Virus record (IMG/VR): IMGVR_UViG_3300008255_000098
Direction: 5' to 3' (one strand)
Origin: a virus
Lineage: Duplodnaviria; Caudoviricetes
DNA length: 64,000 nt
Shown here: positions 16,626 through 41,834 of the stretch, piece by piece
How the letters are laid out: every line of letters begins with the position of its first letter
Numbering within the stretch: the stretch's first letter is position 1
Position numbers and translations under genes: made by a program
Notes under the pieces: model-generated
The model's input: the letters and a program-made list of their open reading frames with translations, nothing else
Databases searched by the model: none
What the model was told of the DNA's origin: nothing

Positions 16626-17261
16626 ATGAAACTTACAAAATCTCAACTTAATACTTTGGTTAGGCAAGCTATTCGCAAATCTCTCAATGAAACAATGAGA
16701 TTTCCAAAAAACTCAACCAAAGTAAATGACCAAAATGACGTTGGTATGTCAAAAAATGATTTATCAGCACACCTCTCCGCTGAACGTGAAAAAAAGCAAA
16801 GAAAAGATGTTCAACAACGTAGAGCTTCAATGCGCAATACTTCTCGTGGCATGGAGTTGGAAAGCGGATGTGAACTTACTGAGGACCAACACGAAGGGCG
16901 TGAAGATTACTTAAAAAAGCTTCGTAGTGCTGGTTGGGACGATACAGAAATTTTAGAAGAGTTAGTTCTGGCTATGTCAAACTCTGAGGCCACAGAAAAC
17001 TTTAAGTATATTTTAGACAAGTGGGAACACAACGGTGAGGAACCAGAAAGAGAAGAGTTGGTGGGCAAGGAAGTGCCTGCCGCCGATGGCAGCGACTACG
17101 GATTTCGAATTCTTAATTTTCTCCCAGACACCGACGATTACACGGGACAAATCATCACTTGGAGCACAGGCGTTCCAAGCGAACAGACGACTAGAGAGAT
17201 AGACGCCTTCAAATTGTCCTACCGTTATATACCGGGGAAGGCCAGGAAGTCCAGAGTTTAG
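16626..17261 (+). CDS. hypothetical virion protein with class I leader
   Basis: MKLTKSQLNTLVRQAIRKSLNE leader. Confidence 0.7.
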   Translation: MKLTKSQLNTLVRQAIRKSLNETMRFPKNSTKVNDQNDVGMSKNDLSAHLSAEREKKQRKDVQQRRASMRNTSRGMELESGCELTEDQHEGREDYLKKLRSAGWDDTEILEELVLAMSNSEATENFKYILDKWEHNGEEPEREELVGKEVPAADGSDYGFRILNFLPDTDDYTGQIITWSTGVPSEQTTREIDAFKLSYRYIPGKARKSRV

Positions 17262-17401
17262 CGGGTATCTTGTGAATGCGCTTTGTTGAACTCAATGCAA
17301 AAAATGTATGAAGGAAATGAATATTGTCGTCGGCGGAAAATGGTTCGAAATATGGCCAAAACACATTAGGCACATCATCACCAAAAAGAAAAGCTAAAGA
17401 C

Positions 17402-17439
17402 TTAGCAGACTCTTCAGTTAGACAGGTTGCTAAATTCAA
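17402..17439 (+). repeat. 38-nt exact intergenic copy of sheath-2 coding sequence (15319-15356)
   Basis: TTAGCAGACTCTTCAGTTAGACAGGTTGCTAAATTCAA occurs at both positions. Confidence 0.9.
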
Positions 17440-17487
17440 CGATACAAGAGTCTCAACTAGTTAATAAAGAAAGCAAAAGAAAAGATT

Positions 17488-17715
17488 ATGAAAGTTACAA
17501 AATCCCAAATTAAAGAAATGGTTCGTGCCGCCGTCAGAAAACAACTCACTGAAGCTAGTTCTGGGGTTGAGGTAAAAAATGTTATGATTGATGTTTTACG
17601 AGATAGTGGTATGACAGATACTGATATTCTTACACAACTCGTAGCTGCATTAGATGACCAAAGTGTTCGAGTAGCTCTAGGAACGTTAGTTGGTCAAGCA
17701 CAAAGCAAAAAATAA
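17488..17715 (+). CDS. small virion protein with class I leader
   Basis: MKVTKSQIKEMVRAAVRKQLTE leader; body similar to the middle of 16626 (LRDSGMTDTDILTQLV vs LRSAGWDDTEILEELV). Confidence 0.7.
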   Translation: MKVTKSQIKEMVRAAVRKQLTEASSGVEVKNVMIDVLRDSGMTDTDILTQLVAALDDQSVRVALGTLVGQAQSKK

Positions 17716-17967
17716 ATGAAAATATCAAAGGCGCAGCTAGAAAATCTAATAAAAGAAGCAGTCAAAAAACAATTAGATGAATCTGTCTCCGTTGGAGAAA
17801 TTGAAAACAGAATTGCAAGACTTGATAGGCATAGGCTAGAAAACAATCTTAGTGTTTATGAAATTTTAGAAGACGTATTGGAGCAGATTGACAATGAAAC
17901 CTGGGAAGCGATCTTAAAAGGAATAAATTATAAATACGGAATATCAAACAAAAACAATTCGATATAA
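17716..17967 (+). CDS. small virion protein with class I leader
   Basis: MKISKAQLENLIKEAVKKQLDE leader. Confidence 0.7.
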   Translation: MKISKAQLENLIKEAVKKQLDESVSVGEIENRIARLDRHRLENNLSVYEILEDVLEQIDNETWEAILKGINYKYGISNKNNSI

Positions 17968-18001
17968 GTACAGTATATTATAAGTTTAGCAGGGAAATTT
18001 T

Positions 18002-18463
18002 ATGAAATTAGATAGAACACAGTTTAAAAAGGTTTTAAAGGAATGTATGCGAGAGTTAATTGACGAAGGTGCATTTAGTAACGTAATGAAAGAAAGTAAC
18101 TTCCGTCAAGAAGCTTCTAACGAACGCCCAGCCGCAAATGATTTTGTTGCTTCGAGCCAAGTCGGAAATTCTTCTCCGAATGATCGACTTAAAGAAATTT
18201 CTAGAGCTGCCGCTGCTCAGATTTCAAAAGGGGATCCTAAATCTCGTGCAATGATGGAAAGTATTTTTGAAGACACTGCTCGCACAACGTGGCAAAGACA
18301 AATGGAAGCTGAGCGTGGCGGTACAGGACAAGATGAGGTCTATGTTGGCGACGAAACAAGTGCAGAAGTCAATGCACAAGAGATGGCTATGTTAGATGTG
18401 TTAAGTGGTGGCCGTGGGGCTCAACATTGGGCAGCTGTTGCACTTGGGAAAACAAATAAGTAA
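18002..18463 (+). CDS. putative head-assembly/core protein with class I leader
   Basis: MKLDRTQFKKVLKECMRELIDE leader; upstream of scaffold and MCP. Confidence 0.65.
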   Translation: MKLDRTQFKKVLKECMRELIDEGAFSNVMKESNFRQEASNERPAANDFVASSQVGNSSPNDRLKEISRAAAAQISKGDPKSRAMMESIFEDTARTTWQRQMEAERGGTGQDEVYVGDETSAEVNAQEMAMLDVLSGGRGAQHWAAVALGKTNK

Positions 18464-18579
18464 AATCATTTTTTGTGAATTTTTCTTTTAAAAATATAAT
18501 AAAATCATTTTTCGTGAATACTTCTACGACTAAACTATTTCTAGCGAATATTTACACCATGTAAGGAAACTAATTTATC

Positions 18580-19059
18580 ATGCCTAACCATCACCAACTT
18601 GTAATAGACGCCCCGGTAACAACTCGGGGCTCAGGAAGATCGAGTACGACAGATCTTCTTATAGCTTATCCAGCTTCTCCGACTAACACCCTAAGTGATG
18701 CAGATATTAAAGACCTTTTCATAAACACTGTTTTAGCACAAGCAACTGGTGGAATTGTTAATGATGGCGGACATACTTTCGGCGAAGTAGCAATTGATTA
18801 TGCTGCTGCCCCAAATATTGAAGAAGTTGTCGTTGGCGGCGCAGGGCTCCCTGGCAATCCACATGCTCCAAACATTGTTTCTCCAGGCGAGGGCGTAGAC
18901 CCAACAACTATGCCAGATGGAAGCGCAATTACTTTGGCGGCAAAGGGCCAAGGCGGACCATTCCCAGGATATGTCGGTGGCGACAATCCTAGTGTAACAA
19001 GCGCAAATGTTACTCCACTTACTATTGGCAGTCTTTCGGGTCACGGACACACGGCTTAA
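18580..19059 (+). CDS. Gly/Pro-rich hypothetical virion protein
   Basis: 159 aa; TATTTA at 18549 and an SD-like AAGGA upstream; directly before the scaffold. Confidence 0.65.
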   Translation: MPNHHQLVIDAPVTTRGSGRSSTTDLLIAYPASPTNTLSDADIKDLFINTVLAQATGGIVNDGGHTFGEVAIDYAAAPNIEEVVVGGAGLPGNPHAPNIVSPGEGVDPTTMPDGSAITLAAKGQGGPFPGYVGGDNPSVTSANVTPLTIGSLSGHGHTA

Positions 19060-19073
19060 TCAAGGAATATTTC

Positions 19074-21374
19074 ATGACAGACTTGTATACAGAGGCACTA
19101 AAAGATGCACAAAAAATTCGAGAGATTGCAGAAACTGATGCAAAAAATCGTCTCGTAGAAGCACTTACGCCGTACATCAAAAAAGTAATCGCAAAAGAAG
19201 CAGCTGGCGACAGTGACTTTTATTTTGAACAAAACGATAATCCAGAAGATGATGAAGATGCTCTTGATTTAAATAATCCGACAGATGTTCCAGCAGCAGT
19301 TGCACCACAAGCACCAGTTCCGGAAGGTCAGCCTTCTTCTCAAGCAGGAACTGCACCACAAGCACCACAAACAACACCAGGGCTTACTGTAAACTCTACG
19401 CCAACAGATGTGATGGGTGATGAAGCAACTACCCTCCCTATTAAAACACCAGGGTCAGAAGAACTTGTAAATGGTTCAATGCCAGATTCTGACGGCAAAA
19501 TTACTGTTGACTTCGAAGATTTATTTGTCAATGGAACCTCTGACCAAGTTACTATAACCCCGCAGGGGCAAATGGCTCCAATGGAAGCCCCTGTAGCCCC
19601 TACAGGGGGCGAAGAAGTTTCTCCTGGGCTTGGGGTTGATAAAACCTTAAATACTGGTAACGAGCCTCCAGTGGCAAATGGTGAGCCACTTGAGCCACTT
19701 GAGCCAACAGAAGACGAAGAACAACTTGATCTTTCGACGAAAGAGTCAATCAACTATAAAGATTATAAAAGAGTTTTTTCAAATATCTCAGAGAGAATTG
19801 ATATGACTCTTTACAAAGATAAAGTTTCAAATATAGTATTTGAAACCCTTAAACAACGGTTATTTGATTTACTGGAGGCAGTAGATACAATGAGAGACCG
19901 TGGAACTATTTCAGGTAAGCAAGCACAATTAAACGAAAACAAATTAGAATTTTTGTTTATAAAGCTGAAAGAGGCGAGTTTGCATAATAGTTACTCTAGT
20001 AATGGAAATAAAGGCCCAGATATGACAACCCTTAAAGAATTCGCAGCACAACTTTTTGAAGAAGATGAAAATCTTGCAAAAGATTCGGTTAGTAGTGGTA
20101 AAACCGGCGTTCCGGTTGATGAAGAATATTCAGCCCACGCAGCAAAAGTTTCTGGTGTAGACCCGAAGCTCGGTGGAGCTAAAGATATCAAGGTTTCGCA
20201 AAGTAAACATCTTGGTAAGGGTGAAGCTCTTCCAGATAGTTCAGACCCTGACGAAAAACCTTGGGGTGAAGGTTCACCAACAGTAAATGAAAATAGCGCA
20301 GTTGGCCTTGATGACACAGACGAAAAGCCATCTGACGAATTTGAAGTTGACGATGCAGAGCTTGCTGAAGCAGTAAGATCTATTCGAAAAGAAAGCATCA
20401 AGAAAAAGCTTTCAGCACTCCGTGAAGCTGAGAAAAAAGAAGGACTCAACGTTGAGACTTCAGAAGACTATCCAGATCCAGGCCCTGAGGGTGGCGAAGA
20501 CCCATCTCACGATAAACTTAAGGAAATGTTAGAAATGAGAATGAACGAAATGATGGATGAACAAGACGATGATGACAACGACGAAGACGAAGATATGTCA
20601 AAAGTTCTCGACGATGACGAAATGTCTGTTGAAGATGATTTAGATTCTGACGAAGAACTCCCAGAGGACGAAGACGCTGATTTAGTTCTTTCAATAGACT
20701 TGCCACCAGAAGTTGAAAAAGAGTTAGCAACTCTAGGTCTTGATGACCTCGATGTGGATGTTGCTCTTAATGTTTCTACAGACCTCGACGACGACGAAGA
20801 AATAGAAATTTCTGACGAAGACGAAGACGAAGACGAAGACGATGCCGAAATGCCTGAAGAAGAAGTTCTTGAGGACGAGTATATGGGCGGGGTAGACGAA
20901 ATGAAAGAAATGAAAAAAATGAAAAACGAAGCGAAAAGACAAGCTAACAAAGCAAAGCTTCTAGAAAAAAAGCTTCAAAAAGCAGTACGACTTCTTCGTT
21001 TACAAAATAATAAGCTTACTAACCTTGAGGAACAATTAGTTGAAACTAATCTGTTTACTTCAAAGGCAGTATATTACAGCAAGTTCCTCCAAAGGGCACT
21101 TACTGAAAAGGCTCTAAGCAAGAAAGCGTTACAACAAATTGTAGAGCACCTTGACAAGGGTCGATCGGTTGCTGAAACAAAAGCAATCTATAAGAAAATT
21201 GAGAATAAGCTCAATGAACATGCAAATGCTTCCCGCAAATTGGGCGGTTCTTCCTCGAAGGTGACCAGACCAGGGAGCGCAAACTTGAATGAGAGTGCAA
21301 ATTCTCAAACAAGGAATGATCCGGAAACTCAATCCAGCAATCGCTGGCAGCTTCTTGCAGGCATTAAAAAATAA
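19074..21374 (+). CDS. prohead core scaffolding protein (gp22-like)
   Basis: very acidic, many LxE sites, C-terminal coiled coil ending RWQLLAGIKK, immediately upstream of the MCP. Confidence 0.75.
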   Translation: MTDLYTEALKDAQKIREIAETDAKNRLVEALTPYIKKVIAKEAAGDSDFYFEQNDNPEDDEDALDLNNPTDVPAAVAPQAPVPEGQPSSQAGTAPQAPQTTPGLTVNSTPTDVMGDEATTLPIKTPGSEELVNGSMPDSDGKITVDFEDLFVNGTSDQVTITPQGQMAPMEAPVAPTGGEEVSPGLGVDKTLNTGNEPPVANGEPLEPLEPTEDEEQLDLSTKESINYKDYKRVFSNISERIDMTLYKDKVSNIVFETLKQRLFDLLEAVDTMRDRGTISGKQAQLNENKLEFLFIKLKEASLHNSYSSNGNKGPDMTTLKEFAAQLFEEDENLAKDSVSSGKTGVPVDEEYSAHAAKVSGVDPKLGGAKDIKVSQSKHLGKGEALPDSSDPDEKPWGEGSPTVNENSAVGLDDTDEKPSDEFEVDDAELAEAVRSIRKESIKKKLSALREAEKKEGLNVETSEDYPDPGPEGGEDPSHDKLKEMLEMRMNEMMDEQDDDDNDEDEDMSKVLDDDEMSVEDDLDSDEELPEDEDADLVLSIDLPPEVEKELATLGLDDLDVDVALNVSTDLDDDEEIEISDEDEDEDEDDAEMPEEEVLEDEYMGGVDEMKEMKKMKNEAKRQANKAKLLEKKLQKAVRLLRLQNNKLTNLEEQLVETNLFTSKAVYYSKFLQRALTEKALSKKALQQIVEHLDKGRSVAETKAIYKKIENKLNEHANASRKLGGSSSKVTRPGSANLNESANSQTRNDPETQSSNRWQLLAGIKK

Positions 21375-21400
21375 GTAACGGAAAATAGCTTTTAGGCAAA

Positions 21401-21406: not shown

Positions 21407-21430
21407 GAGAAAGATTTAGAGGATATTAAA

Positions 21431-23353
21431 ATGAGTACATTTACACTGTCACAGTTGGCAGAAGGCGTTCAAAGGCGTTCCCTTGGAACAGACACTCCAC
21501 GTATAACAAGGAAATGGGCTGCCACGGGCCTTCTTGAGAACCTTACAGGGGTCAATCGTGATAACATGTCACGACTTCTTGAAAACCAAGTGGTTGAGCT
21601 TCTTAGGGAGACAAACGCATTATCTACTGGTGGAGCAGGACTTTCGTCAAGCGGAAAGGTAGCTGGTTTTACCAATGTTGCCTTCCCAATTGTTCGTAGA
21701 GTTTTCGCAGGCTTGATTGCAAACGAAATCGTTTCAGTTCAGCCTATGTCTCTACCAACGGGTCTTTTGTTCTACCTTGATTACTCCTATGGTTCGTCCG
21801 TCGGTGGTGATGCAGGTTCAACAGCAAACCAATTTTCAACGACATCTATTGTTGATCCTTCGACTTATACCAGTCAAGACTCAGTTTACAACAACCCACG
21901 TGGTTCTGGTGTTCGTTCGGGATCACTTGCAACAGGTGGTCAATACGACCTTGCTGGACATGGTTATTCCAAGGTCCACAAACAAGCAAAGAACCTTTTA
22001 TCCACCGCTGATAGCGTTGGTTATTGGGCAGGTGGTTCCACCTGGACCGCAGCTGGTACAGTTGCTTCTTCCGCAGATTTCGCTGGTTTCAACGCACGTT
22101 ATGCAATGTATGACGCAACCGTTGAAAACGATGTAACTGATGGACTTCTTGATTATACTTTCGTATTTGTTAGCGCATCACAGTTCACCACCAACATCGG
22201 CGGCGCAGATCTTGACAATGTAAACCAAGTTGCTCTTACGGGCTTTGGTGCTGCAACTCAATCCGCTGTAGAGTGGGGCGAGAAATATCAAGGCGGACGA
22301 GGAGTTCTAAACCTTCGTAAGCTCAACCAAAGAGGAAATTGGGATTCAGCCACTGGCTTGTTCTCCCCAGACCCTTTGAACGGCTCGCATCTTATGTTTG
22401 TTGTGCGTCTTGCTAACGCAGGTACAGCACCGACCCTAACGGCTGTTGTCGGTAACGAGGTAACAGCTTCCGCTGCTATCGCAGACGCACTCAGCGTAAA
22501 CTCTGATGGTTCAACCCTTACGATTCCAAGCTTCGAGTCTAACTTCGCAGTTGACGCAAGCCCACGTATCCCAGAAGTTGATATCCGTATCGAGTCAACA
22601 GCTGTAACCGCTCAGAGCAGAAAGCTCAGAGCCCGTTGGTCACCAGAAATGGCGCAGGATCTTACCGCATTCTACAGCATTGATGTAGAAGTCGAGCTTA
22701 CAAACATTCTCTCCGAGATGATTACGCTTGATATCGACCGTGAAATCTTGAACGACCTTCTTACACAAGCAGGAGCAGCAAATCTCTTCTGGAGCCGTGC
22801 CCCAGGAAAGATTGTAAACAAGTTCACTGGCGCTGAGGCCCTCCAGTCCAGCACATTGAGCCCTGGCCCGATGGCATTCGTAAACATCCAAGATTGGTAC
22901 CAGACTCTTCTTGAAACCGTTACCGATGCTGCAAACACCATCCACAGAAAGACACTTCGTGGTTCCGGTAACTTCATTGTTACAAGCCCTGATGTCTGCA
23001 CAATCATTGAGCATCTTGTTGCTTACAAGCCTTCCTACAGAGTAGACGCTGATGGACAGGTACGAGACAACATGGTAGTTGGTGCCGAAGCTGTAGGTAC
23101 TTTGAACAATCGTTACACGATTTACAAGGACCCTTACTTCCCAAGCAACAAGCTTCTTGTAGGTTTGAAGGGTAACACCTTCCTTGAGTCCGGATTTATT
23201 TACGCACCATACGTACCTCTTATCTTGACGCCTGTCATCTACGCACAGGAGGACTTCACTCCACGTAAGGGTGTCATGACTCGATACGGAAAGAAGATGG
23301 TCAGAAATGATTTCTACGCAACCGTAACAGTATTAGATATGGGTCTGATTTAA
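21431..23353 (+). CDS. gp23: major capsid protein (T4 gp23 family) with large insertion
   Basis: KWAATGLLE, FPIVRRVF, VSVQPMSLPTGLLFYLD, SRKLRARWSPEMAQDL, IYAPYVPL and PRKGVMTRYG motifs. Confidence 0.95.
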   Translation: MSTFTLSQLAEGVQRRSLGTDTPRITRKWAATGLLENLTGVNRDNMSRLLENQVVELLRETNALSTGGAGLSSSGKVAGFTNVAFPIVRRVFAGLIANEIVSVQPMSLPTGLLFYLDYSYGSSVGGDAGSTANQFSTTSIVDPSTYTSQDSVYNNPRGSGVRSGSLATGGQYDLAGHGYSKVHKQAKNLLSTADSVGYWAGGSTWTAAGTVASSADFAGFNARYAMYDATVENDVTDGLLDYTFVFVSASQFTTNIGGADLDNVNQVALTGFGAATQSAVEWGEKYQGGRGVLNLRKLNQRGNWDSATGLFSPDPLNGSHLMFVVRLANAGTAPTLTAVVGNEVTASAAIADALSVNSDGSTLTIPSFESNFAVDASPRIPEVDIRIESTAVTAQSRKLRARWSPEMAQDLTAFYSIDVEVELTNILSEMITLDIDREILNDLLTQAGAANLFWSRAPGKIVNKFTGAEALQSSTLSPGPMAFVNIQDWYQTLLETVTDAANTIHRKTLRGSGNFIVTSPDVCTIIEHLVAYKPSYRVDADGQVRDNMVVGAEAVGTLNNRYTIYKDPYFPSNKLLVGLKGNTFLESGFIYAPYVPLILTPVIYAQEDFTPRKGVMTRYGKKMVRNDFYATVTVLDMGLI

Positions 23354-24167: not shown

Positions 24168-24566
24168 ATGGCATTTACAAAAAATAGATTTCAAAAGTTA
24201 GCTGGGATTCTTAAAGAAAGTAAAAAACCTATAAATGAAGAGTTAGATGCTCCTAGAGATTTCTCAGAACTTCAAGATTGGCTAGACAGACGGCCAGGCG
24301 TTTCTGCTAAGGTTGCAAAATTGATTGAAGAAGAAGAAGACGAATCCAAAGCAGCAGAATGGTTGCTTACTAACTTCGACTATGATCTATCAATGTGGTC
24401 CGGAAAGGAATTAGTAGAATTTTTAGAACAATATACAACTTCTAATGATGAACACGACGACGATGACTACGATGATAGAATGGATGGGGATTTTGACAGT
24501 GCCATGGCCTCCGCTGGATTTGGTACCGATGAAGACTATGGTTTTAGCGGCGGGGAAGATTGGTAA
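24168..24566 (+). CDS. acidic virion protein with class II (RFQKLAGI) leader
   Basis: MAFTKNRFQKLAGILKE; C-terminal DGDFDSAMASAGFGTDEDYG; TACTTA at 24128. Confidence 0.7.
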   Translation: MAFTKNRFQKLAGILKESKKPINEELDAPRDFSELQDWLDRRPGVSAKVAKLIEEEEDESKAAEWLLTNFDYDLSMWSGKELVEFLEQYTTSNDEHDDDDYDDRMDGDFDSAMASAGFGTDEDYGFSGGEDW

Positions 24567-24571: not shown

Positions 24572-25072
24572 ATGTTTAATAAAAAAAGATTTCAAAAATT
24601 AGCAGGTATCCTAGTTGAAGGAACACACACTGGTGAAAAATATAGACATAACAAAGTTTACAACGTCATAAAACATAAAATGTCACAATTCTTAGAAGAA
24701 AAAGGCGACGACGTTAATGAAGTTATAGTAGAAACTATGAAAGATGCAATGGAAAACTCTCGTGGGGAGGAGCTTGATCACAGATCCTTCAGTGCTGATG
24801 ATTTTCTTGGAGAATCAGATATAACAGAAATGTTTCTAAAATTTCTAGGTAATCAATATCTTGTTGACGTATTAAATGGAGATGATGAAAGTCAGGCGGC
24901 GGCGGAAAATCACCAGGCAGCTTGGGATGCGGCCTACGAAGCTATGAATGAATGGCTAGAAAAAGTATCCTATGATGATTTCCAAGTTGCACTTGAAGAC
25001 ATAAGAGACAGTGAAGAACTTGCTAGAGACCCAAATGGCTATTATGGTGTTTCTGATAAAGATTTTTATTAG
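24572..25072 (+). CDS. acidic virion protein with class II leader
   Basis: MFNKKRFQKLAGILVE; C-terminal RDPNGYYGVSDKDFY. Confidence 0.7.
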   Translation: MFNKKRFQKLAGILVEGTHTGEKYRHNKVYNVIKHKMSQFLEEKGDDVNEVIVETMKDAMENSRGEELDHRSFSADDFLGESDITEMFLKFLGNQYLVDVLNGDDESQAAAENHQAAWDAAYEAMNEWLEKVSYDDFQVALEDIRDSEELARDPNGYYGVSDKDFY

Positions 25073-26800: not shown

Positions 26801-27028
26801 ATGAAAATTACTAGCGAACAATTAAAACAACTTGTCACGGAAGCAGTTAGAAAGAATTTAGGAGAAAATACTTTCCACTTTTTATTAGCAGACGAAATTG
26901 ATCAATTGGCATCAAAGACAGCAAAAGTTTTTGTCAAAGAACTTAAAATAGAATTACCTGAGGATAGGGAAGAGGTTATGTGGGAAGTAAAAGAATATCT
27001 TAAGAATATTGCAAAAGAGTGGATGTAA
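26801..27028 (+). CDS. small virion protein with class I leader (possibly truncated)
   Basis: MKITSEQLKQLVTEAVRKNLGE; the downstream region looks like decayed coding sequence. Confidence 0.65.
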   Translation: MKITSEQLKQLVTEAVRKNLGENTFHFLLADEIDQLASKTAKVFVKELKIELPEDREEVMWEVKEYLKNIAKEWM

Positions 27029-27269: not shown

Positions 27270-28384
27270 ATGGATTCACTTTTAAAAAAACTTATTAGAA
27301 GAGAAGTTAGAAGAATAATTTCCGAACAAGACATCGACGATGTATTTGGAAACCATTTATGGGCAGATAAAAATGAATTTCCAAAAGAGAGAACTAAACA
27401 GTTTAATGAACCAAACACGGACTTAGAAAAAAAGTTCTTTACTGTTCTCGAAGATTATATTGAAGGGATTCTACACTTGGAGAGCCGGGGTCTGACGCCA
27501 TGGGGGAATTTATTAAAAATGTTTTACGCCCACTTAAAGTACTGAATAAATTTCCTGAATATATCAACCCACCTAAAAATATAGTTTTCAGGGGCATGAG
27601 TAACCTTTCTTTAAAAACGGCGACAAAGATACTTGGAATTTCTGAAAAAGAGCTTATTTCAATGTCTGGTGTTTCGCAAAAAATAGCTGTTAGTTCGACT
27701 GTATACCCGATCAACGAAACTATGTCTTGGTCAAGTAACAAAGATATACCAACCGCATTTTCATACTTTGGTGGAAATGGAACCGATGAAACTCATGTGA
27801 GTATTATTATGTTGGCTAATCTATATGATTCAGGTAATGATTTTTACTTGAATATTAATAATATTGCGCAGAATTATTCAGGTTTTCCATCATTAGCTGG
27901 CAAAGAGGGAGAAACACTTTCTATCGGACCAGTTAAAATTCACGCAGCATATGTATATGTTGTAAACTTAAGAAAAGAAATAGAGGACGAAAGAAAGAGT
28001 TTCAGCGCATTATTACCAGAACTAATATCAAAAATTTCTGCCGAAGAAATCAAAAAAGATCAAGATGAGAGCGAGTCAGCAAAAGGGAATAAAATAATAT
28101 TCAATAAACTTAATAAGGCTTTCACCGAAATTTTCCAAAAATATAATCTAAAGATAAAACAAATAGATAGTTTTGTTAATTCAGTTTTATATTTTATCTC
28201 AAATGTTCGATTACCTAAAAGTTCTTTCAGCGACGATGAAACACTTGAAACACTTGAAACACTTGAAACACTTGAAACGCATCTAATTGATTCATTCGAA
28301 GATCAAATACCTGATTTATTTCAAATATTTGAAATAGAACAAGGAGAAATTGAAAAATTTGAAGAGTTTGTCAAAAAGAACTAA
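27270..28384 (+). pseudogene. R-S-E clade ADP-ribosyltransferase-like protein with leader, split by a -1 frameshift at a G5 run (~27502-27506)
   Basis: MDSLLKKLIRREVRRIISE leader; adding one G joins ...TPWGEFIKNV to IVFRG / MSWS / EGE motifs; paralog of 3609. Confidence 0.65.
28238..28279 (+). repeat. 9-bp tandem repeat (GAAACACTT)4+ encoding ETL repeats
   Basis: direct reading; in frame within the ART-like C-terminal tail. Confidence 0.9.
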
Positions 28385-29729: not shown

Positions 29730-30299
29730 ATGGCATTTTTAAAAGAACGATTGCAAAAATTAGCAGGGATTACCAATCCACAGATGTTGACAGAATCAGC
29801 ACGCCCATACGATGATGAGGCGAAAAAAATGATACATGATGTACCTGCTTATTTACGTGCTATTCATCTTTGGTTTCATGGCGCTCACCACACCACCCGA
29901 GGCGCTGACTTCGCTGGCGATCATGCCTATCTCTATACAAGAATTTACACTGAGGTCCAAGATGAAGTAGATGGAGCCATAGAAAAAGCGATAGGCGTCA
30001 CTGGTGAACAACGTATGGCATGTCCGAAATGTTTAACAGAACATGCAGTTGAGATTCTTGGAAAATATGCAAATCCCCCGGAGTTAGAACCACGGGATAT
30101 TGCAAAAGAAGGTCTTCATATGATTGAAGACTATATTTCAATGATAGAACACACCTTCAAGGTGTTGGAAAGCAAAGGAATGCTTACCCTCGGAATGGAT
30201 GACCAACTTGCGGCTTCGGCAAACACACATGAAACATACGTATATTTATTGAAGCAACGAGTCCGAAGTTATGACGATGTTTCACAAAACTTGTTATAA
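29730..30299 (+). CDS. Dps/ferritin-like protein with class II leader
   Basis: MAFLKERLQKLAGI...LTE; HLWFHGAHH...FAGDH..LY...Y...DGAIEK and HETYVYLLKQ ferroxidase-type pattern. Confidence 0.75.
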   Translation: MAFLKERLQKLAGITNPQMLTESARPYDDEAKKMIHDVPAYLRAIHLWFHGAHHTTRGADFAGDHAYLYTRIYTEVQDEVDGAIEKAIGVTGEQRMACPKCLTEHAVEILGKYANPPELEPRDIAKEGLHMIEDYISMIEHTFKVLESKGMLTLGMDDQLAASANTHETYVYLLKQRVRSYDDVSQNLL

Positions 30300-31944: not shown

Positions 31945-32808
31945 ATGATAAAAAAGTTGGAACAACTCATAGAGACTATCGTAAAATCAGTTGTTACAGA
32001 AGCACACGGAATAAGTGATTTTCGACGTAACAAAAAAACTTTTGTGACGCTGTACCATATTGGCCCTCATCCTGCTAGGCCAAAACCATTTAGGCACACA
32101 AACAGAAGTCTTTCACCCGCCGGAAAAAGGTCAGGGTGGAATAGACCATATTTGGATGAACCAGTTGTTGAAGGAGTGTTCTTGAGTGACAACTGGAAAC
32201 CAGTATATGTCAACCATGGAGTACACGGCAATGTATATGCCTATAAGATACCATATAAAGCAATTGAAGCAGCTGGTGGAATACATGAATATGATTTTGC
32301 CCGTGAGATAGTATTTTCAAAAGAAATCTGGGATAAATATAATTTATCGAGTGCTCTTGTTGGTAAAGTTTATAATAAGTCAGAAGCAGAAGAAGAAATA
32401 TTGAGAAAGAAAGGAAAATTTGCTTTTATGGTCGGACATTCTACAGAATTCCCAACATCAGGCAGCGAATACGACAAAGAAAAACCAAAAGATGCCATGA
32501 AACCAATATCTCTACCGACATTTATTAAACTTTTGAGGACGCCCGTCAGTAAGCAAATAGAAATTGCGAAATTGCTGTCTCCTACATCAGTAAAAAGAAT
32601 ACGCTTTTCAATTGAAGAATATAAAATGAAGGCCGAAAACGCAAAGAAAGAGTGTCAAGAAAAGTTAAAACGAACATATAGTTCATTTGCTAATAAAACA
32701 TCTTTTCTTAACTGGTCTGGGGTTTGTAAAAGAAGGTTAGAGGAAATTAAAAACGAAGTTGTTTTAGTTAATCAGCTGGAGCATTCATTAAAACAGACCG
32801 AAAAATAA
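31945..32808 (+). CDS. ADP-ribosyltransferase-fold protein with class I leader
   Basis: MIKKLEQLIETIVKSVVTE; TLYHIG, GVFLS, GNVYAYKIP and REIVF strands in ART order. Confidence 0.5.
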   Translation: MIKKLEQLIETIVKSVVTEAHGISDFRRNKKTFVTLYHIGPHPARPKPFRHTNRSLSPAGKRSGWNRPYLDEPVVEGVFLSDNWKPVYVNHGVHGNVYAYKIPYKAIEAAGGIHEYDFAREIVFSKEIWDKYNLSSALVGKVYNKSEAEEEILRKKGKFAFMVGHSTEFPTSGSEYDKEKPKDAMKPISLPTFIKLLRTPVSKQIEIAKLLSPTSVKRIRFSIEEYKMKAENAKKECQEKLKRTYSSFANKTSFLNWSGVCKRRLEEIKNEVVLVNQLEHSLKQTEK

Positions 32809-34908: not shown

Positions 34909-35718
34909 ATGAATATTAAAGATCGTTGGATGAAATTAGCTGGGATTACACCCAAAAGTCCTACAAAATCAAAACAAAATCTAAAAGAAGGTTTTGTTAA
35001 CCTTGGAATGGCTTCCCCAGGAATTATGGGTAACCCGTTTGGTCGTGGTGCAAAAAGCTTGGCAGAAGAACAAGAGCAAGATGAAGACCAAATCAAAACT
35101 AGAAAATACGGCGAAGATAAAGAGGAAGACATGGAAGTCAACGAATCACAACTCGCTGTAGACCCATTTGAAGGTCACCCGGAAAGAGGATATAACGGAC
35201 CCGATTATGACCCGAGCCAAAATCCAGAAATCCAAGCACTTCCGAGACAGATTGGTTCGCCGCTTGACGATGAGTTCTCGTTAGACAATTTTGATCCGGA
35301 AGAGGAAGGTTTATCTGAGCGACCTCCAAAATATTATAAAAAGTCAGACGATGAGGATTGGTACGGGTCAGACGATGAGGGTTGGTACGGACTAGAAGAC
35401 ATGTCTCCAGAAGAACGTGACGAACGTGAGAGAAGAGTATTTGGCGCAAGCAACAGTGCTGGTCGTAGAGGACACAGAGACGAAAGTCATAAGCCTGCTG
35501 GCAAAAAAAACCGACACCTAAAAGAAAGAGTTGAAAGTGCAGATGAGCTTCAACAAGAGTTGAAAAGATTAATTTATGAGGCAGACGACATATTTGGCCT
35601 TCTACTAGACGGAAAAACAAAGTACAATAGACAACTTTTAAAAGTAGGACGAGGATTTTTACGAAAATGCTCACGTGCTGTGTTAGACGCAACAAGTTCC
35701 TCGTTGAATAGGGAATAA
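34909..35718 (+). CDS. acidic low-complexity virion protein with class II leader
   Basis: MNIKDRWMKLAGI; internal LKE sites; TATTTA at 34888. Confidence 0.7.
   Translation: MNIKDRWMKLAGITPKSPTKSKQNLKEGFVNLGMASPGIMGNPFGRGAKSLAEEQEQDEDQIKTRKYGEDKEEDMEVNESQLAVDPFEGHPERGYNGPDYDPSQNPEIQALPRQIGSPLDDEFSLDNFDPEEEGLSERPPKYYKKSDDEDWYGSDDEGWYGLEDMSPEERDERERRVFGASNSAGRRGHRDESHKPAGKKNRHLKERVESADELQQELKRLIYEADDIFGLLLDGKTKYNRQLLKVGRGFLRKCSRAVLDATSSSLNRE
35344..35391 (+). repeat. 24-bp tandem duplication (SDDEDWYG / SDDEGWYG)
   Basis: TCAGACGATGAGGATTGGTACGGG / TCAGACGATGAGGGTTGGTACGGA. Confidence 0.9.
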
Positions 35719-35723
35719 TAGAA

Positions 35724-36308
35724 ATGAATTTTTCAAGCAATAGGTGGAAACAACTTGCTGGTGTCTTAAAGGAAGGTGGCAATAAGCGCATATCAGCTAT
35801 AGGGTCTGATGACAGTGTGGATGGTCCTTATACAGAAATTTCTCCTTTACAGCCTATGGAACAAGACACAAAGTGTCTGCAAGAAGGCGAAGGGGAATAC
35901 CCTGCTACTGCTAGTGAGTATGCTAAAAAATTAAATGCCGAGCATGATGGACTATCTAAATTAGTAAGCGACCAAGAACATTGGGAAAAAGTTGGCATAT
36001 ATTCCGGAGAAGACTTGGCTAGATATCTAGCTATTTCTTCTTACGTGGACACATACAAAGATTCTTATGGAATACGTCCAAGACACGTGAAGTTTAGTAA
36101 CTTATCAATTGGCCAAATTGTTGAACTAACAGACGATATTATGAAAGATGCGTTAGGGGAAGAAGAAGAAGTAGAAGAAGACGATTATGAAGATGAATAT
36201 CCTGTAGATTTCGACGATGCTGTTGGGGACAATGACCCGGCGCCTGGGGATGAATATTCTGCCCTAGAAAACGAAATGGATAGAAAACACCACGGTAGAT
36301 CTTTTTAA
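35724..36308 (+). CDS. virion protein with class II leader
   Basis: MNFSSNRWKQLAGVLKE; central DTYKDSYGIRPR motif; acidic tail. Confidence 0.7.
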   Translation: MNFSSNRWKQLAGVLKEGGNKRISAIGSDDSVDGPYTEISPLQPMEQDTKCLQEGEGEYPATASEYAKKLNAEHDGLSKLVSDQEHWEKVGIYSGEDLARYLAISSYVDTYKDSYGIRPRHVKFSNLSIGQIVELTDDIMKDALGEEEEVEEDDYEDEYPVDFDDAVGDNDPAPGDEYSALENEMDRKHHGRSF

Positions 36309-36712: not shown

Positions 36713-36758
36713 TTTTGATAAGCCCTGGGGGGATTTTTAACCTCAGGGCTTATCAAAA
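36713..36758 (-). terminator. 15-bp stem hairpin overlapping the actin-like gene stop
   Basis: TTTTGATAAGCCCTG...CAGGGCTTATCAAAA. Confidence 0.7.
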
Positions 36759-37757
36759 AACTTGTGCAGCAATCAGGCAACCTTTGGCGACACTGTGTAG
36801 TGCATCAGCGGCATGACGCACTTCGCTTACCTCAAGCGGAAATTCATTTTCCGCTAATTTATCTTCAAACATTTTAACAAAGCCTTTTGCCTTTGAGGTA
36901 CCACCGGCAATTACTACTGGTAAAGGACTCACAAATTTAGGAAGATTTTTTCTTCCTTCTAAATGCACACAAAGCTGTTTAACCGTATAGTCAATTAACC
37001 TAGCATAATAAGAAGAAACTGCTGCCAAAACTGGATTTTCATTTGCTTCGCCAACAGTAAATTCTCCACCTTCTTTTTCTGCCTGGACAACAGAGTCTGG
37101 TTCCCCAGAAGCAACAGCTGACATTCTGTCAATCCAGTCACCAGATTTTGTCGTTGAAAATTTCAAAACTGGTTCACCGTTTAGCATCACGCACACATTC
37201 ACCATTCCGGCACCAAAAGAAAGAGTCACCCCCGTATAATCATCTTTTTCTAACTCGGCGTAACACAGTGCTTCGGCTTCATTTATTGCTCTAGCATCGT
37301 AACCTTGTTCAGATAATATTTTTGTTACTACGTCTTCGTGATATCCTATATCAAATTCTTCATCTTCTTGGTCAATTGGTTGTGCGGGTACACAAAAAAC
37401 AAGTTTTTCACCTGCTTTTTTCGCTTTTCCTACAACCTCTTTTAGGATATATGACAAAACTTTTCTAGCATCTTTCTCTTTTGCAGATACTACACCACGA
37501 TACATGGGACGTTTTGCGCTGTCATTTCTTTCAACTGCCTTCTCTAGTGCGTCACTTCCAAGAACTATAAATGAACCATTTTCTTCATCCTTAACAAAGA
37601 TTTTCCCCTTCAAACCCTTTTCAATCATTTTAGTTGCAATAGGGGTTGTTGGTTTTATTACATAAAATGCATCTCGGAAATCTTTATAAACAACATTTCC
37701 ATCTTTATTTTCACCAGCTAGCACTATAAACGATGTTCCGCAATCAAGACCTTTCAT
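36753..37757 (-). CDS. actin-fold ATPase (MreB/ParM/FtsA-like)
   Basis: phosphate-1 GLDCGTS, connect-1 INEAEA, phosphate-2 LSFGAGMVN, adenosine VIAGGTS; AGGAGG SD before ATG 37757. Confidence 0.8.
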   Translation of the reverse strand: MKGLDCGTSFIVLAGENKDGNVVYKDFRDAFYVIKPTTPIATKMIEKGLKGKIFVKDEENGSFIVLGSDALEKAVERNDSAKRPMYRGVVSAKEKDARKVLSYILKEVVGKAKKAGEKLVFCVPAQPIDQEDEEFDIGYHEDVVTKILSEQGYDARAINEAEALCYAELEKDDYTGVTLSFGAGMVNVCVMLNGEPVLKFSTTKSGDWIDRMSAVASGEPDSVVQAEKEGGEFTVGEANENPVLAAVSSYYARLIDYTVKQLCVHLEGRKNLPKFVSPLPVVIAGGTSKAKGFVKMFEDKLAENEFPLEVSEVRHAADALHSVAKGCLIAAQVF

Positions 37758-37768
37758 ATATCCTCCTA

Positions 37769-38060: not shown

Positions 38061-38072
38061 TTTATAAATGTT

Positions 38073-38363
38073 TTATTTTCCTTGCTTTAGTTTCTTAAGT
38101 TTTGACACAGCGTCAGTGATGTCTGTTTCCGAAATAGTCTCTTCGCCAAGGCTGCCAAAATTTTTAGAAAAAGAAGTTGTTTTTATTTCAGTAACAAATT
38201 TACTTTCATCTATTTCAATATTTTTACGTTTATTTAATTTTTTGTATTTTTGTATATTGGTTTTGTCAAAATCTTGAAGAAAACTATTATAAACAAAGTT
38301 AGTTCTACCTAGGGTGTATCCTAATATAAAAAATACAAATCCTATTATTATTTCTATAAGCAT
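38073..38363 (-). CDS. small membrane-anchored protein
   Basis: N-terminal hydrophobic segment MLIEIIIGFVFFILGYTLG. Confidence 0.6.
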   Translation of the reverse strand: MLIEIIIGFVFFILGYTLGRTNFVYNSFLQDFDKTNIQKYKKLNKRKNIEIDESKFVTEIKTTSFSKNFGSLGEETISETDITDAVSKLKKLKQGK

Positions 38364-38415
38364 ATTTTATTTTAACAAAAAACATAGTCTTTGGACAAAA
38401 GCACTATTTACTATC

Positions 38416-38850
38416 ATGCATCATAGTGATCCAATGAAATATACAATGGAACAACTTGTTAAAGCACTAACAGCTGAAGCTTTAGGGGAAGTTTCAAACA
38501 ACAATCTCATGTTGCAACAAGAATGCGCTTGTGAAGACAATGATGATAACGAAAATTTAGAAAACAATACTAAATGGGACCAAGTTGCACAGGCGTTGGT
38601 AGCAGAAATTAAAAATCAGTTTTCTGGCATAAGTGTTAGAGCAAACGGACCAGAAGCCGAAGAATGTATAGATAGTTTAGCTTCGCTTGTTAGTTTATAC
38701 TCTGAATATCCAATGGCATTTAAATTATTGTCCGCAGTTGAGAAAATAGCTTCCGACGAAACAGACTCACGAGTATTTGCTTCTTTAATAGTTCAGGCAA
38801 TGAATAGCGATGCGGCAGATGAGTGGAAAAGATATAACCAGCATAAGTAG
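38416..38850 (+). CDS. hypothetical virion protein with class I leader
   Basis: MKYTMEQLVKALTAEALGE; TATTTA 5 nt before ATG 38416. Confidence 0.6.
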   Translation: MHHSDPMKYTMEQLVKALTAEALGEVSNNNLMLQQECACEDNDDNENLENNTKWDQVAQALVAEIKNQFSGISVRANGPEAEECIDSLASLVSLYSEYPMAFKLLSAVEKIASDETDSRVFASLIVQAMNSDAADEWKRYNQHK

Positions 38851-38977
38851 AAGTCAGAATATGCAACGCAGGGCCAAGAGCCCACTATAGACGCCACAAT
38901 AAAATTAAGTCGAACTTTGGTACATTTCATTAGTGACAGGTCGCTAAAAATATTCTAAAATAACCACAGAGAAAAAT

Positions 38978-39808
38978 ATGGTCGATAGAGATAAACAACA
39001 AACAGACGAATTTAAAAAAGCAAACTCAAAAATTGTAACAGTTGGTGGAGAAAAAAAACTTCTATTAATGGACGATGATGAACCTAAAAATTCTGATGAG
39101 GAAATTGATTTACAGGAAATAATTGAAACTTTGGTCAGAGAAGCTTTGGAAGAAAACGAATTGTACAAGGATTATAATAAAAAAAAACTTTGTGAAGGAT
39201 ATATTGACGAAGCTGAATTCCCAAATGGTTTCAATATAGAAGAATTCAATAAAATTTCAAGTTTTAAAAATCGTGTCTCATATGCTAAAAAACATCTCCA
39301 GCGAGTTGCTGGTGGTTCTGGCAGAGTAGTCTTTGTAGTAGACCCAGAAACAGTTGTTAAAATTGCATTAAATAAAAAGGGCCAAGCTCAAAATAGTGCA
39401 GAATGGGACATTAGCAATATGGGGTATTCTGCTGTAACAAAGGTAAAAAATGCGGACACAGACAAATATTTGTATCTAGAAGTTGAACGAGCAAAAAAAC
39501 TCAACATGCGTGATTGGAAAAAAGTAACTGGTTGGAATTTTTATGACTGGATGGCTGTATTGAGAAATTACGTTGATGAACGTTTTAATAAAAAACGGGC
39601 TAGGAACATTGTTCCTGAAGACTTTGAAGAAATTGAAGAATCAGAACTTTTTTTAACCATTGTTCAAATGATTACAGATTTTAACATGCCAGCTGGTGAT
39701 ATACAGCGACCTTCCTCTTGGGGTATTGTTGAAAGAGACGGCGCAGAAACTCCTGTTTTAGTTGATTACGGATTGACTGGCGAAGTATATAAAAGCTACT
39801 ACAAATAG
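38978..39808 (+). CDS. protein kinase-like fold protein (paralog of 8029)
   Basis: VAGGSGRVVF, VVKIA, SAE, AGDI and LVDYG motifs; leader-like LQEIIETLVREALEE. Confidence 0.7.
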   Translation: MVDRDKQQTDEFKKANSKIVTVGGEKKLLLMDDDEPKNSDEEIDLQEIIETLVREALEENELYKDYNKKKLCEGYIDEAEFPNGFNIEEFNKISSFKNRVSYAKKHLQRVAGGSGRVVFVVDPETVVKIALNKKGQAQNSAEWDISNMGYSAVTKVKNADTDKYLYLEVERAKKLNMRDWKKVTGWNFYDWMAVLRNYVDERFNKKRARNIVPEDFEEIEESELFLTIVQMITDFNMPAGDIQRPSSWGIVERDGAETPVLVDYGLTGEVYKSYYK

Positions 39809-39809
39809 T

Positions 39810-41834
39810 TTAAGCAACTTCTTTTTTGTATGCGTGCAAAATATTTGGTATAAACTTTTTATATCTAAATTTTTTACTTAGCAACATGGACATAAGTTTT
39901 TCATAAGAGTTGATATCTTCCCAAGTTGTCCCTCTCCCAAAAAATATTTTTGCCATTTCATTTGGGTCTGTTGTAATCGGCTCATCTGATAGTTTTATTT
40001 TCTGCACATTTTTTTGTCGTCCAGTAGGTAGAACGGTTTTAATTTTTTGTTTTCGCATCCCATCTCTAAAATTCAAAACAAAACGAATATATTCATCTTC
40101 GTTTTCTGTTGGCAACTTAATTTCTCTAGCAATGTTACTCAACAACTTGTTTCTGTCCCTTGCTTTATAAGAACTATCTTTAGGAGCCCCTGAGTTAACA
40201 TCCGTCATCCACTGAAGATTTCCTACAAATATATCTACTTGAATAAATCCTGGTTCATCTCCACGAGACCCGTCAGATAAAAAGTTATTTATTTGTTTGT
40301 TTGAACTATCTACCAGCGGCGCTAAAATATGAAATTGACTTAACCCTTTGTTAATTGAATATTTCTCAGCGTCGCTTGTTTGTAACAGCCTATCAAGGCT
40401 ACTCCAAATATTTTTTTTGTCTTTTGAGGAAACTCCTAAAAATTTTGCTAAGTCTTTGCCGTCAATTGCAACGTCTATGTCGTTAAAAAATTCTTTTGTT
40501 TTATTACCAACAACATTGAATGGAATCCCGCCTAATCCACTATTTTTTAGTGCATTTGCTATAGCTGGCTCTAAAAGTGCTTTTGGAACTACAGAATTCA
40601 TTTCATCAAATACATTGCCTCCCTCTGTAAGGAAGTGCAAAGTTTTACTAAGTTTTTGTTCTGGTAGTAGTTCTCTTTTCATAAACATCTCAGCAACTTC
40701 CTTCGGGGGAATGCCTTGGGACAGTTTATTTTTAATTGCTTTTACAAATCCAAGATTTAATTTAATATCATTTTTTGTATCTTCAACCTTACGAGGGATT
40801 GTGATCCACTGTTGGCCTGTTTTTTTGAAATCTTCTTCGGCTCTATGTATTTCTTCTTCCCAAGCAGAAAGATATTTTTCTATATTTTCTGGGTCATTTT
40901 TAATATCTTTTTTGAATGTTCTAATTGCGCTTTCAAGCATTTTTAGAAACCTTCGATTTTCATCACCCTTTTTGAGAAATTTTTCTGTGTCAACAATTTT
41001 TAGCAATTCGCCCTCTGGGTTTTTGACAACTATACCCTCTACCTCATCACCAAATTTACTAGATACGTTTTTCTGTAATATTTGTTGTTTGGCTTCAAGT
41101 CCTAAATCTTGGATTGCTTTAAGAAGTTTTTGTTTCAATTCTTTTTCTGCTGGTTTACGAGCTGGTTTAGATAAGAAATTTCCGTGCTTTTCAATAATAT
41201 CTTCAAGCGAAACTATTATTGAAGAACTAAAATCTAGATCATGTAAATCAACATTTGGGACAGAGAAAAATTTTACTTTACTATATTTGTTAGCTTTGTT
41301 TGCAAAAGATTCCCAAATTTTTGGATTTGATAAAACGCCTGTGTTATCTTTGGAAACAGAAGTTTTCATATTAAATATTACAAGAATTCCGTTTCCAATT
41401 TTAGCCTCATCGTATATCACAATATTGTGATCATACGTTGGAACTGCCTCGCCAGCGACTTCAAGAGTATCAGTAAATTCAAAACCAAATTCTTCAGACA
41501 ACTCCTTACCTATTTCAGCCCACGGAATTTCAGATAATAACTCAAAATATTTCTTAAAACTAGTCATGAAATACAAATCTGGGATTTCCTCAGCTGAGTA
41601 CCAAATTTGTGTCTTTGAACGAAGATAAAATCTTCCGTTATCAATACCAGCCGCTCGATAACTACCGTCGATCTTTTCTGATACATGAAATTTAGCTTTA
41701 TCTAAATTCCATGCTTTTAAAAAGTTCAAAAGTTTCTGTGGAGACAATTTTTCAAGATGGACTACGCCTTCATTTAAATTTTTAAATGCTCGTGCTACTT
41801 CTTCGGTTATTAGCTTTTGTAAAAAAAATTTCAT
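39810..41834 (-). CDS. RNA-ligase-like domain fused to a Pol-beta-type nucleotidyltransferase, with leader
   Basis: ligase motifs EKIDGS, GE, EGIVVK and LKIV, no OB domain; after an internal LTE site (aa 402-404) GGNVF...NDIDVA...IQVDIF. Confidence 0.75.
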   Translation of the reverse strand: MKFFLQKLITEEVARAFKNLNEGVVHLEKLSPQKLLNFLKAWNLDKAKFHVSEKIDGSYRAAGIDNGRFYLRSKTQIWYSAEEIPDLYFMTSFKKYFELLSEIPWAEIGKELSEEFGFEFTDTLEVAGEAVPTYDHNIVIYDEAKIGNGILVIFNMKTSVSKDNTGVLSNPKIWESFANKANKYSKVKFFSVPNVDLHDLDFSSSIIVSLEDIIEKHGNFLSKPARKPAEKELKQKLLKAIQDLGLEAKQQILQKNVSSKFGDEVEGIVVKNPEGELLKIVDTEKFLKKGDENRRFLKMLESAIRTFKKDIKNDPENIEKYLSAWEEEIHRAEEDFKKTGQQWITIPRKVEDTKNDIKLNLGFVKAIKNKLSQGIPPKEVAEMFMKRELLPEQKLSKTLHFLTEGGNVFDEMNSVVPKALLEPAIANALKNSGLGGIPFNVVGNKTKEFFNDIDVAIDGKDLAKFLGVSSKDKKNIWSSLDRLLQTSDAEKYSINKGLSQFHILAPLVDSSNKQINNFLSDGSRGDEPGFIQVDIFVGNLQWMTDVNSGAPKDSSYKARDRNKLLSNIAREIKLPTENEDEYIRFVLNFRDGMRKQKIKTVLPTGRQKNVQKIKLSDEPITTDPNEMAKIFFGRGTTWEDINSYEKLMSMLLSKKFRYKKFIPNILHAYKKEVA

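Follow-up and report, generated by a model that had tools for sequence, protein, structure and literature searches.

Why would many otherwise unrelated genes of one phage begin with the same few residues? The question is raised by IMG/VR record IMGVR_UViG_3300008255_000098, a 64-kb stretch of viral DNA of ~36% G+C (here called the window). A preliminary description of it had listed about 20 open reading frames (ORFs) whose N-terminal leaders end in [ILV]-x-E, the cleavage pattern of the T4 prohead protease gp21, and had read them as a capsid-packaging system for a cocktail of enzymes. When the listed starts are translated, two leader families are evident, class I and class II. We consider it fairly probable that both are prohead-targeting propeptides of the type known from the T4 capsid-targeting sequence (CTS), and the class II peptide appears to derive from the phage's own scaffold protein.

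Two leader families

The class I core comprises five plus-strand genes with 22-residue N termini in which [LI]-x-E occupies residues 20 to 22: 16626–17261 (211 amino acids [aa]; leader 16626–16691, LNE/T, the slash marking the predicted cut), which opens an operon between the sheath and scaffold genes; 17488–17715 (75 aa; leader 17488–17553, LTE/A); 17716–17967 (83 aa; leader 17716–17781, LDE/S); 18002–18463 (153 aa; leader 18002–18067, IDE/G); and 26801–27028 (75 aa; leader 26801–26866, LGE/N). The peptide is basic and amphipathic and follows M-K-[LIV]-[TSD]-K-x-Q-[LIF]-...-[LI]-x-E. A sixth, weaker member is the 91-aa ORF at 27270–27545 (plus strand; class I-like leader 27270–27326, ISE/Q), whose first 65 residues are paralogous to gene 3609. 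In class II, also on five plus-strand genes, 4 to 7 residues precede R-[FWL]-x-x-L-A-G-[IV], and an L-x-E follows, either directly after the LAG[IV] core or 4 to 10 residues further on. These genes are 24168–24566 (132 aa; tag 24168–24218, LKE/S; mature part with an isoelectric point [pI] of 4.1), 24572–25072 (166 aa; tag 24572–24619, LVE/G), the Dps/ferritin-like gene 29730–30299 (189 aa; tag plus linker 29730–29795, LTE/S), 34909–35718 (269 aa; tag plus linker 34909–34989, LKE/G), and 35724–36308 (194 aa; tag 35724–35774, LKE/G).

In all-against-all BLASTP comparisons, leader similarity is mostly limited to the first 22 to 30 residues, and the claim that the leaders sit on otherwise unrelated proteins holds for most pairs. 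Genes 17488 and 17716, and likewise 16626 and 17488, are alike beyond the leader, to ~55 to 60 residues, and are probable paralogues. When profiles are made from the leaders of the window itself, they retrieve only those leaders and 27270 (E = 0.0026 with the class I profile). As an independent test, hidden Markov models (HMMs) built from sequences of other phages only were run against the six-frame translation of the window. The class I HMM recovered the five core leaders at E values of 5e-8 to 9e-4 and 27270 at 0.0052, and the class II HMM recovered all five tags at 7e-10 to 0.018; the sole further match below an E value of 0.3 was the C terminus of the scaffold (E = 0.09). The pattern R...LAG[IV] occurs six times in the window versus 0.16 times in shuffles, and on this count and the recovery by other-phage HMMs we reject a chance origin of the leaders.

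Scanning the window and its relatives thus bore out the two leader families, which are conserved across the clade, and 11 of the ~20 leader-bearing ORFs first proposed are solid by BLASTP and other-phage HMMs. The remaining nine (3609, 8029, 29199 on the minus strand, 29255, 31945, 33818, 38416, 38978 with an internal leader, and 41834 on the minus strand) were retrieved by no profile. They have in common just a generic helix followed by hydrophobic-x-E, which is too frequent by chance to count, and some of them may be genuine tags of other types.

The repeated 5' ends might instead be DNA-level cassettes, acting as recombination sites or translation-initiation signals. T4-type genomes do shuffle genes through short conserved flanking sequences, and a 21-nucleotide (nt) repeat, described below, lies upstream of 26801. 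However, where class I leaders share an amino acid, the same codon is used in only ~30 to 65% of cases, and nucleotide identity is just 45 to 67%. The leaders therefore appear to be selected as peptide and not as DNA, and the same peptide also sits at a protein C terminus; a cassette origin is largely refuted, and we regard it as very improbable.

The leaders recur in other phages. No near DNA match to the window exists among 50,697 phage records, and the annotated phages closest by capsid protein (30 to 45% identity) are LR756508.1 (an uncultured phage of 484 kb), Flavobacterium phage immuto, Microcystis phage Mel-JY01, and Rhodothermus phage RM378. Nearer capsid homologues (71 to 87% identity) number in the thousands in the protein database, on contigs of up to 343 kb; the window therefore appears to come from a distant T4-like jumbo phage of a large uncultured clade. 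LR756508.1 contains 33 class I hits, mostly clustered around its protease and capsid genes, as well as two class II-tagged ORFs adjoining the protease gene; three to five such ORFs are found in close relatives. The culturable phage immuto (vB_FspM_immuto; MW353176.1) has two N-terminally tagged ORFs, near 111.6 kb and 25.5 kb, that read M-K-K-Q-I-L-S-E-Q-F-[RK]-R-M-Q-x-L-A-G-I-I-T-E. Two proteins with GTG starts (L004:6263-7525, 407 aa, and L012:3846-5369, 497 aa) carry one class I leader at the N terminus and another internally, and window gene 16626 matches only their second half. The leaders therefore seem to sit at the junctions of fused genes as well, and gene fission or fusion at these boundaries is indicated.

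The class II leader as a copy of the scaffold tail

The gp22-like scaffold gene (19074–21374, plus strand) encodes a very acidic protein of 766 aa, whose N terminus resembles that of the immuto scaffold and whose sequence ends ...SSNRWQLLAGIKK; its last ten residues, RWQLLAGIKK (21342–21371), contain the class II motif. Close relatives have scaffolds ending in SRWQ[MV]LAGIKKGE, and the ending is SRWQKLAGIIK in immuto, ERMKKLAGIVK in Mel-JY01, and ERIKRLAGL in RM378, with a variant, SRMQKLADIS, in LR756508.1. Judged by these endings, the class II tag copies the conserved scaffold C-terminal peptide R-[WFLM]-x-x-L-A-G-I. We searched IMG/VR for the exact octapeptide RFQKLAGI in any coding and found at least 119 loci. 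The octapeptide lies no more than 8 residues from the ORF stop in 109 of the 119 matches listed, mostly in scaffold-like ORFs of 300 to 500 aa, and in 96 of the 101 testable cases among these matches, the next gene, beginning just downstream, has the N-terminal motifs of gp23. Also among the matches listed are at least seven N-terminal occurrences on unrelated proteins of 58 to 217 aa. One of these seven is an NT5C 5'-nucleotidase (Pfam E = 1.8e-9, above the family cut-off), whose domain begins right after the tag.

In tailed phages, contacts are commonly made by scaffold termini and by the N-terminal parts of capsid proteins (PMC9546572), and the C termini of prohead proteases are known or proposed targeting signals (PMC7411985); it is therefore plausible, by analogy, that class II cargo and the scaffold tail have a docking site in common. 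A predicted complex of the capsid protein (29-row alignment) with the last 45 residues of the scaffold scored 0.00 and counts neither way.

Two further observations concern this site. The S77 proteases of relatives L013 (L013:5857-6465) and L014 (L014:5961-6602) end in ...R[IV]ANELLGIKK, like the scaffold tail RWQLLAGIKK, which suggests that the protease may dock through a similar peptide. The capsid propeptide of the window (21431–21610) and its homologues contain K-W-x-x-[TS]-G-L-L-E-G as a conserved motif that extends from T4 (NKWKPLLEGEG) to the window's clade, and this is a candidate partner of the scaffold tail.

A portable tag on a Dps-like core

The clearest indication that the class II peptide moves between proteins comes from the product of gene 29730. 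It matches the PHROG families DNA-binding protein (5e-5) and starvation-inducible regulator (8e-4), with a weak match to DUF5856, and several of its database homologues are named DNA-binding ferritin-like protein; the Dps cargo of the preliminary description is thereby upheld. Its 71 homologues have a common core, ...WLRAIHLWFHGAHH..., and differing N termini. A class II tag is present on 28 of the 71, joined to the core by linkers of 27 to 125 residues, and in 26 of the 28 the glutamate stands exactly in LAG[IL]-[ILV]-x-E. No extension at all is found in 17, a class I-like leader in one, and two other conserved types of extension in 12 and 7. As far as can be told from these alignments, the class II peptide is demonstrably modular, a portable tag rather than a piece of the fold, and this distribution is the strongest evidence for it; for at least one tag, the claim that the leaders are reusable is borne out. 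The two other extensions, seen among homologues P0158-P0172 and P0186-P0194, read M-S-x-x-x-x-E-C-P-A... and M-K-x-x-I-K-E-Q-C-D-L-G... and may be further tag types of other phage groups.

The same data bear on a more ordinary explanation, in which the leaders are N-terminal helices with a function outside the capsid (oligomerization, another phage structure, or stability) that spread by duplication within small families. Some tagged genes are indeed alike beyond the leader, as paralogues would be, and hydrophobic-x-E is common by chance. Duplication nevertheless leaves unexplained why class II equals a scaffold C terminus that is found at scaffold ends in more than 100 viral contigs, why a single conserved Dps-like core has the tag in some homologues and lacks it in others, and why a glutamate follows LAG[IL]-[ILV]-x in 26 of 28 tagged homologues. 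We judge such an origin improbable.

Cut sites and the head module

Behind each of the 11 solid leaders stands [ILV]-x-E, and the residue after it is small or polar (T, A, S, G, N, or Q), so the proposed gp21-type ending is present, as a pattern, in every one of them. The major capsid protein offers an internal comparison. Encoded at 21431–23353 on the plus strand, it belongs to the T4 Gp23 family (Pfam PF07068, 6.6e-78) and, in an alignment with T4 gp23 and gp24, reads ...VELLRE/TNALSTGG just before the conserved mature N-terminal region, giving a predicted propeptide of residues 1 to 60 (21431–21610) that ends ELLRE/T. In the same alignment T4 gp24 reads MAKINELLRE/STTT, and T4 gp23 is cut at ...LTE/AEIGG; gp21 removes the first 10 residues of T4 gp24 (PMC9546572). 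Glu60 of the capsid protein does not vary among 29 homologues. The predicted capsid propeptide implies a protease specificity that agrees with the site behind the leaders.

Gene order around the capsid gene is likewise that of a T4-type head module. From 5' to 3' the window carries two sheath genes, four class I genes (16626–18463), gene 18580, the scaffold, the capsid protein, and two class II genes, so that the class I quartet occupies the tail-to-scaffold gap, the position of gp67 and gp68 in T4. Gene 18580 (18580–19059, plus strand) encodes an untagged, glycine-rich protein and, in comparison with relatives, is kept directly upstream of the scaffold gene. An S77 (gp21-type) prohead protease is encoded by relatives L013 and L014 and by LR756508.1, immuto, and Mel-JY01, and in the latter three it adjoins the corresponding head genes too. 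In two relatives (capsid 73 to 74% identical; contigs of 319 and 331 kb) the order is Portal_T4, a 298-aa gene, Peptidase_S77, the 18002 orthologue, the 18580 orthologue, scaffold, and capsid, and the 18002 orthologue, directly after the Peptidase_S77 gene, bears a class I leader.

Upstream sequences place the tagged genes with those of the virion. Of ~75 genes, 16 have a TATTTA no more than 35 nt upstream, usually with C or A in front of it, compared with ~1.5 expected from its overall frequency. It precedes neck, tube, tail, and baseplate genes (1133, 31212, 46942, 48578, and 55835) as well as 8828 and 18580. Among leader genes it is found on five solid members (16626, where it lies 25 nt upstream; 27270; 29730; 34909; and 35724, the last through its operon) and on five loose ones (3609, 29199 on the minus strand, 31945, 33818, and 38416), and the operon of 16626 has three further class I genes downstream of it. 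As far as a motif count can show, the pattern fits late co-expression of the leader genes with virion genes. The late motif attributed to the leader genes is shared with tail and neck genes, and not all listed leaders have it.

The 21-nt repeat mentioned above, TGTCGTAGRWGRGYAGTTCAC, ending ...GTAGTTCAC, is a separate feature: five copies with up to 3 mismatches are present where none is expected, at 1061, 4839, 26768, 37789 (minus strand), and 57097, each just upstream of a gene start. It matches no Rfam family.

Loaded cargo or expelled core

Taken together, these features suggest the following course of events. The tagged proteins would be made late, alongside the head proteins, and their N-terminal peptide would dock them either in the scaffold core as it assembles or on the inner shell. 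A prohead protease of the gp21 family (S77) would then cut after the glutamate of [ILV]-x-E, freeing the mature protein inside the head. Since the class II tag reads as a copy of the scaffold C-terminal peptide, class II cargo probably uses the docking site of the scaffold tail. From the sequence data and by analogy, the mature proteins could then be injected, like the internal proteins of T4 and like Alt, or expelled with the core, like gp67 and gp68. We infer packaging, cleavage, and the docking partner from sequence; injection and anti-defense roles are pure inference.

Several observations weigh against prohead targeting by these leaders. They have no detectable similarity to the T4 CTS, MKTYQEFIAE, and a comparison by eye with the ipII and ipIII leaders leaves only the initial M-K common to class I. 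In class II genes 29730 and 34909 the L-x-E is displaced by 4 to 10 residues from the core. One relative has aspartate at the presumed cut site, a residue that blocks processing in T4, and no protease, portal, or terminase gene was found within the 64-kb window. Finally, the predicted mature parts (53 to 242 residues) are all acidic (pI 4.1 to 5.4) behind basic leaders, in contrast to the basic T4 internal proteins, and agree with a role as accessory scaffold proteins at least as well as with one as injected effectors.

The last point leads to an explanation that retains prohead targeting and gives the proteins another fate: they may be accessory scaffold or core proteins for a very large capsid, degraded and expelled before DNA packaging like gp67, gp68, and gp22. 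Beyond the scaffold-like acidity of their mature parts, the four tagged genes in the gp67/gp68 slot, the conserved position of the 18002 orthologue next to the protease gene, the lack of an enzymatic domain in most tagged proteins, and the unusual length and acidity of the scaffold itself would all be expected of such proteins. Dps-like proteins and, in another phage, an NT5C nucleotidase are implausible scaffolds, however, and yet both bear the class II tag; moreover, the tagged gene set varies among close relatives, as accessory cargo would, and acidic injected proteins such as DNA mimics are known. As an account of the tagged proteins as a whole we find it rather unlikely, although acidity and head-module position favor expulsion for 16626 to 18002. 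For class II, the Dps-like and nucleotidase cargo favor retention in the head and injection.

Going further, the class II tag might be a portable cargo-loading peptide, taken from the scaffold docking tail and provided with a protease release site, which loads arbitrary passengers (the Dps-like protein, the NT5C nucleotidase, and many ORFans) into the DNA-filled heads of a very large group of environmental T4-like phages. We put this forward tentatively, as a possibility that we hold to be less likely than prohead targeting as such.

Relation to known packaging signals

In T4, the CTS, which comprises the first 10 residues of IPIII and reads MKTYQEFIAE/A in the T4 record, is sufficient to load foreign proteins into the prohead core and is removed by gp21, which also processes Alt, gp67, and gp68 (PMC9026906, PMC5694885). 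The internal proteins of T-even phages number at least 10 and have only this leader in common (PMC12373910, PMC9026906), and T4 Ip1, Ip2, and Ip3 inhibit restriction enzymes (PMC12373910). The preliminary description, in crediting T4 with one tag and treating reusable tags as new here, therefore understated what was known; for the internal proteins of T-even phages, a modular tag is already an established idea. The likeness lies in a short N-terminal peptide on unrelated proteins, ending in [LI]-x-E, in a phage with a gp23-type capsid; in genes that are partly in the head module and partly scattered; and in the modular loading of varied cargo. In contrast, the leaders described here are 16 to 27 residues long instead of 10, form two families, precede acidic instead of basic mature proteins, and are known from sequence alone. 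A side observation in T4 itself is that gp22 begins MLKEQLIAEA and the CTS reads MKTYQEFIAEA, with ...[LF]IAEA common to both, which hints that the T4 cargo tag too may resemble a scaffold terminus.

Terminal peptides that bring a passenger into a procapsid are known from other phages as well. Engineered P22 particles load cargo that is fused to the coat-binding C-terminal domain of the scaffold. C-terminal targeting peptides of prohead proteases are described for SPN3US gp245 (PMC7411985) and, on the account given there of Duda et al. 2013, for HK97 gp4. As in all three, a terminal head-assembly peptide would bring in the passenger; here, the scaffold C-terminal peptide occurs naturally on other proteins, at the cargo N terminus, and a protease site follows it. 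A closer parallel in mimicry is CpmB of the satellite SaPI1, which mimics the scaffold C terminus of phage 80alpha and redirects capsid size for the satellite. CpmB, like class II proteins, is a second protein with the capsid-binding terminal motif of a scaffold, competing for or sharing the docking site; here, however, the phage's own genes bear the motif, presumably for head loading. Encapsulins also load cargo, including ferritin-like proteins, into an HK97-fold shell by means of a short terminal peptide, whereas the window belongs to a tailed, DNA-packaging phage with N-terminal, probably cleaved tags. An encapsulin was rejected as the system itself: sheath, tube, baseplate, and neck genes are all present, and the encapsulin loading peptide is C-terminal. 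In the literature searched we found no published description of the leaders or of the scaffold-tail motif. What appears to be new, from the sequence comparisons, is the move of a conserved scaffold C-terminal peptide to the N terminus of a passenger, followed by a release site.

The proposed enzyme cargo

The idea of an enzyme cocktail fits the solid tags poorly. They sit mostly on small acidic proteins without a recognizable domain, plus one Dps-like protein: none of the solidly tagged proteins other than 29730 has a Pfam or PHROG family, and neither do ten class I-tagged proteins of LR756508.1. The tagged gene set also differs between close relatives.

The claimed enzymes are found on loosely tagged genes. 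The kinase fold stands moderately supported, on models, for gene 8029–8787 (plus strand) and its paralogue 38978–39808 (plus strand): in Foldseek searches of the Protein Data Bank (PDB) every top hit is a kinase, of the aminoglycoside, choline, or Ser/Thr type (E = 2e-4 to 4e-3, probability 0.9 to 1.0, TM score ~0.3). The loose leader of 8029 is modeled as a separate helix, residues 2 to 20, that stands apart from the core; in 38978 the leader-like helix is internal, around residues 45 to 60. The family's N-terminal helix, L-Q-x-[LI]-[IV]-E-x-L-V-x-E-A-L, is kept in five of five aligned members. This kinase-like cargo carries only a loose leader.

For an ADP-ribosyltransferase (ART), gene 31945–32808 (plus strand; loose leader in helix 2 to 21, followed by a disordered linker) provides only a lead. 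His, Tyr, and Glu are invariant in it and follow the order of the ART H-Y-E triad, and an atlas feature search points to ARTs (0.88 to 0.91). The AlphaFold model has a confidence score (pLDDT) of 70, and in fold searches (Foldseek against the PDB, VIA-align wide, and AFDB clusters) a C-terminal helical hairpin dominates, with no ART confirmation; comparison with the Arr-ms protein of a relative (hhalign) gave a probability of 0.3, and Pfam had no match for five 31945 homologues. Profile searches against PDB sequences returned only weak rows for both the kinase-like and the ART-like alignments. The ligase claim refers to the 674-aa protein encoded at 39810–41834 on the minus strand, whose RNA-ligase match is weak and sub-threshold and whose first 22 residues end in LNE, a leader of class I length that scores under the profile threshold. 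ParB and glycosylase domains on tagged ORFs were absent from general Pfam and PHROG scans, with no search aimed at either.

Gene 3609 had been taken for a decayed tagged gene; it is an intact ORF of 226 aa in which decay is not obvious. Beside it, a 40-residue fragment at 4425–4544 is 80% identical to residues 165 to 204 of gene 3609–4289 and looks like a partial duplicate or decayed copy. Atlas searches with 34909 and with 3609 gave nothing usable.

Other genes in the window

The remaining structural genes are those of sheath, tube, baseplate, and neck. The two tail sheath proteins (PHROG; 10156–13221 and 13351–16368) are tandem paralogues of ~1,000 aa each, 31% identical over their full length; the tail tube gene 31212 is gp19-like by a weak match, and baseplate and tail genes occupy 45046–56788. 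Also encoded are an actin-like protein of the Volactin family (36753–37757, minus strand; full-length match to PF25216, 8.9e-63), which matches MreB and Salactin more weakly, and a Pol beta-like DNA polymerase of family X (2614–3510) that comprises HHH, fingers, palm, and thumb domains. Rfam and tRNA scans of the window were empty.

Implications for large phages

If both leader families are prohead-targeting propeptides, then a leader with [ILV]-x-E, or a scaffold-tail motif at an N terminus, would be a simple rule for predicting which proteins lie inside the capsid across hundreds of genomes of uncultured jumbo phages, in which genes of this kind mostly lack known relatives. The loading principle known from T4 would be old, diversified, and able to arise by copying a scaffold docking peptide, and there would be a concrete, testable site for cargo entry into the T4-type prohead, together with new tags for loading phage capsids. 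Should the class II peptide prove to be a portable loading tag, it would be the phage counterpart of encapsulin loading peptides, and virion cargo would be predictable from sequence alone. The packaged items (Dps-like proteins, a nucleotidase, and perhaps kinase-like proteins) would then bear on what large phages deliver at infection.

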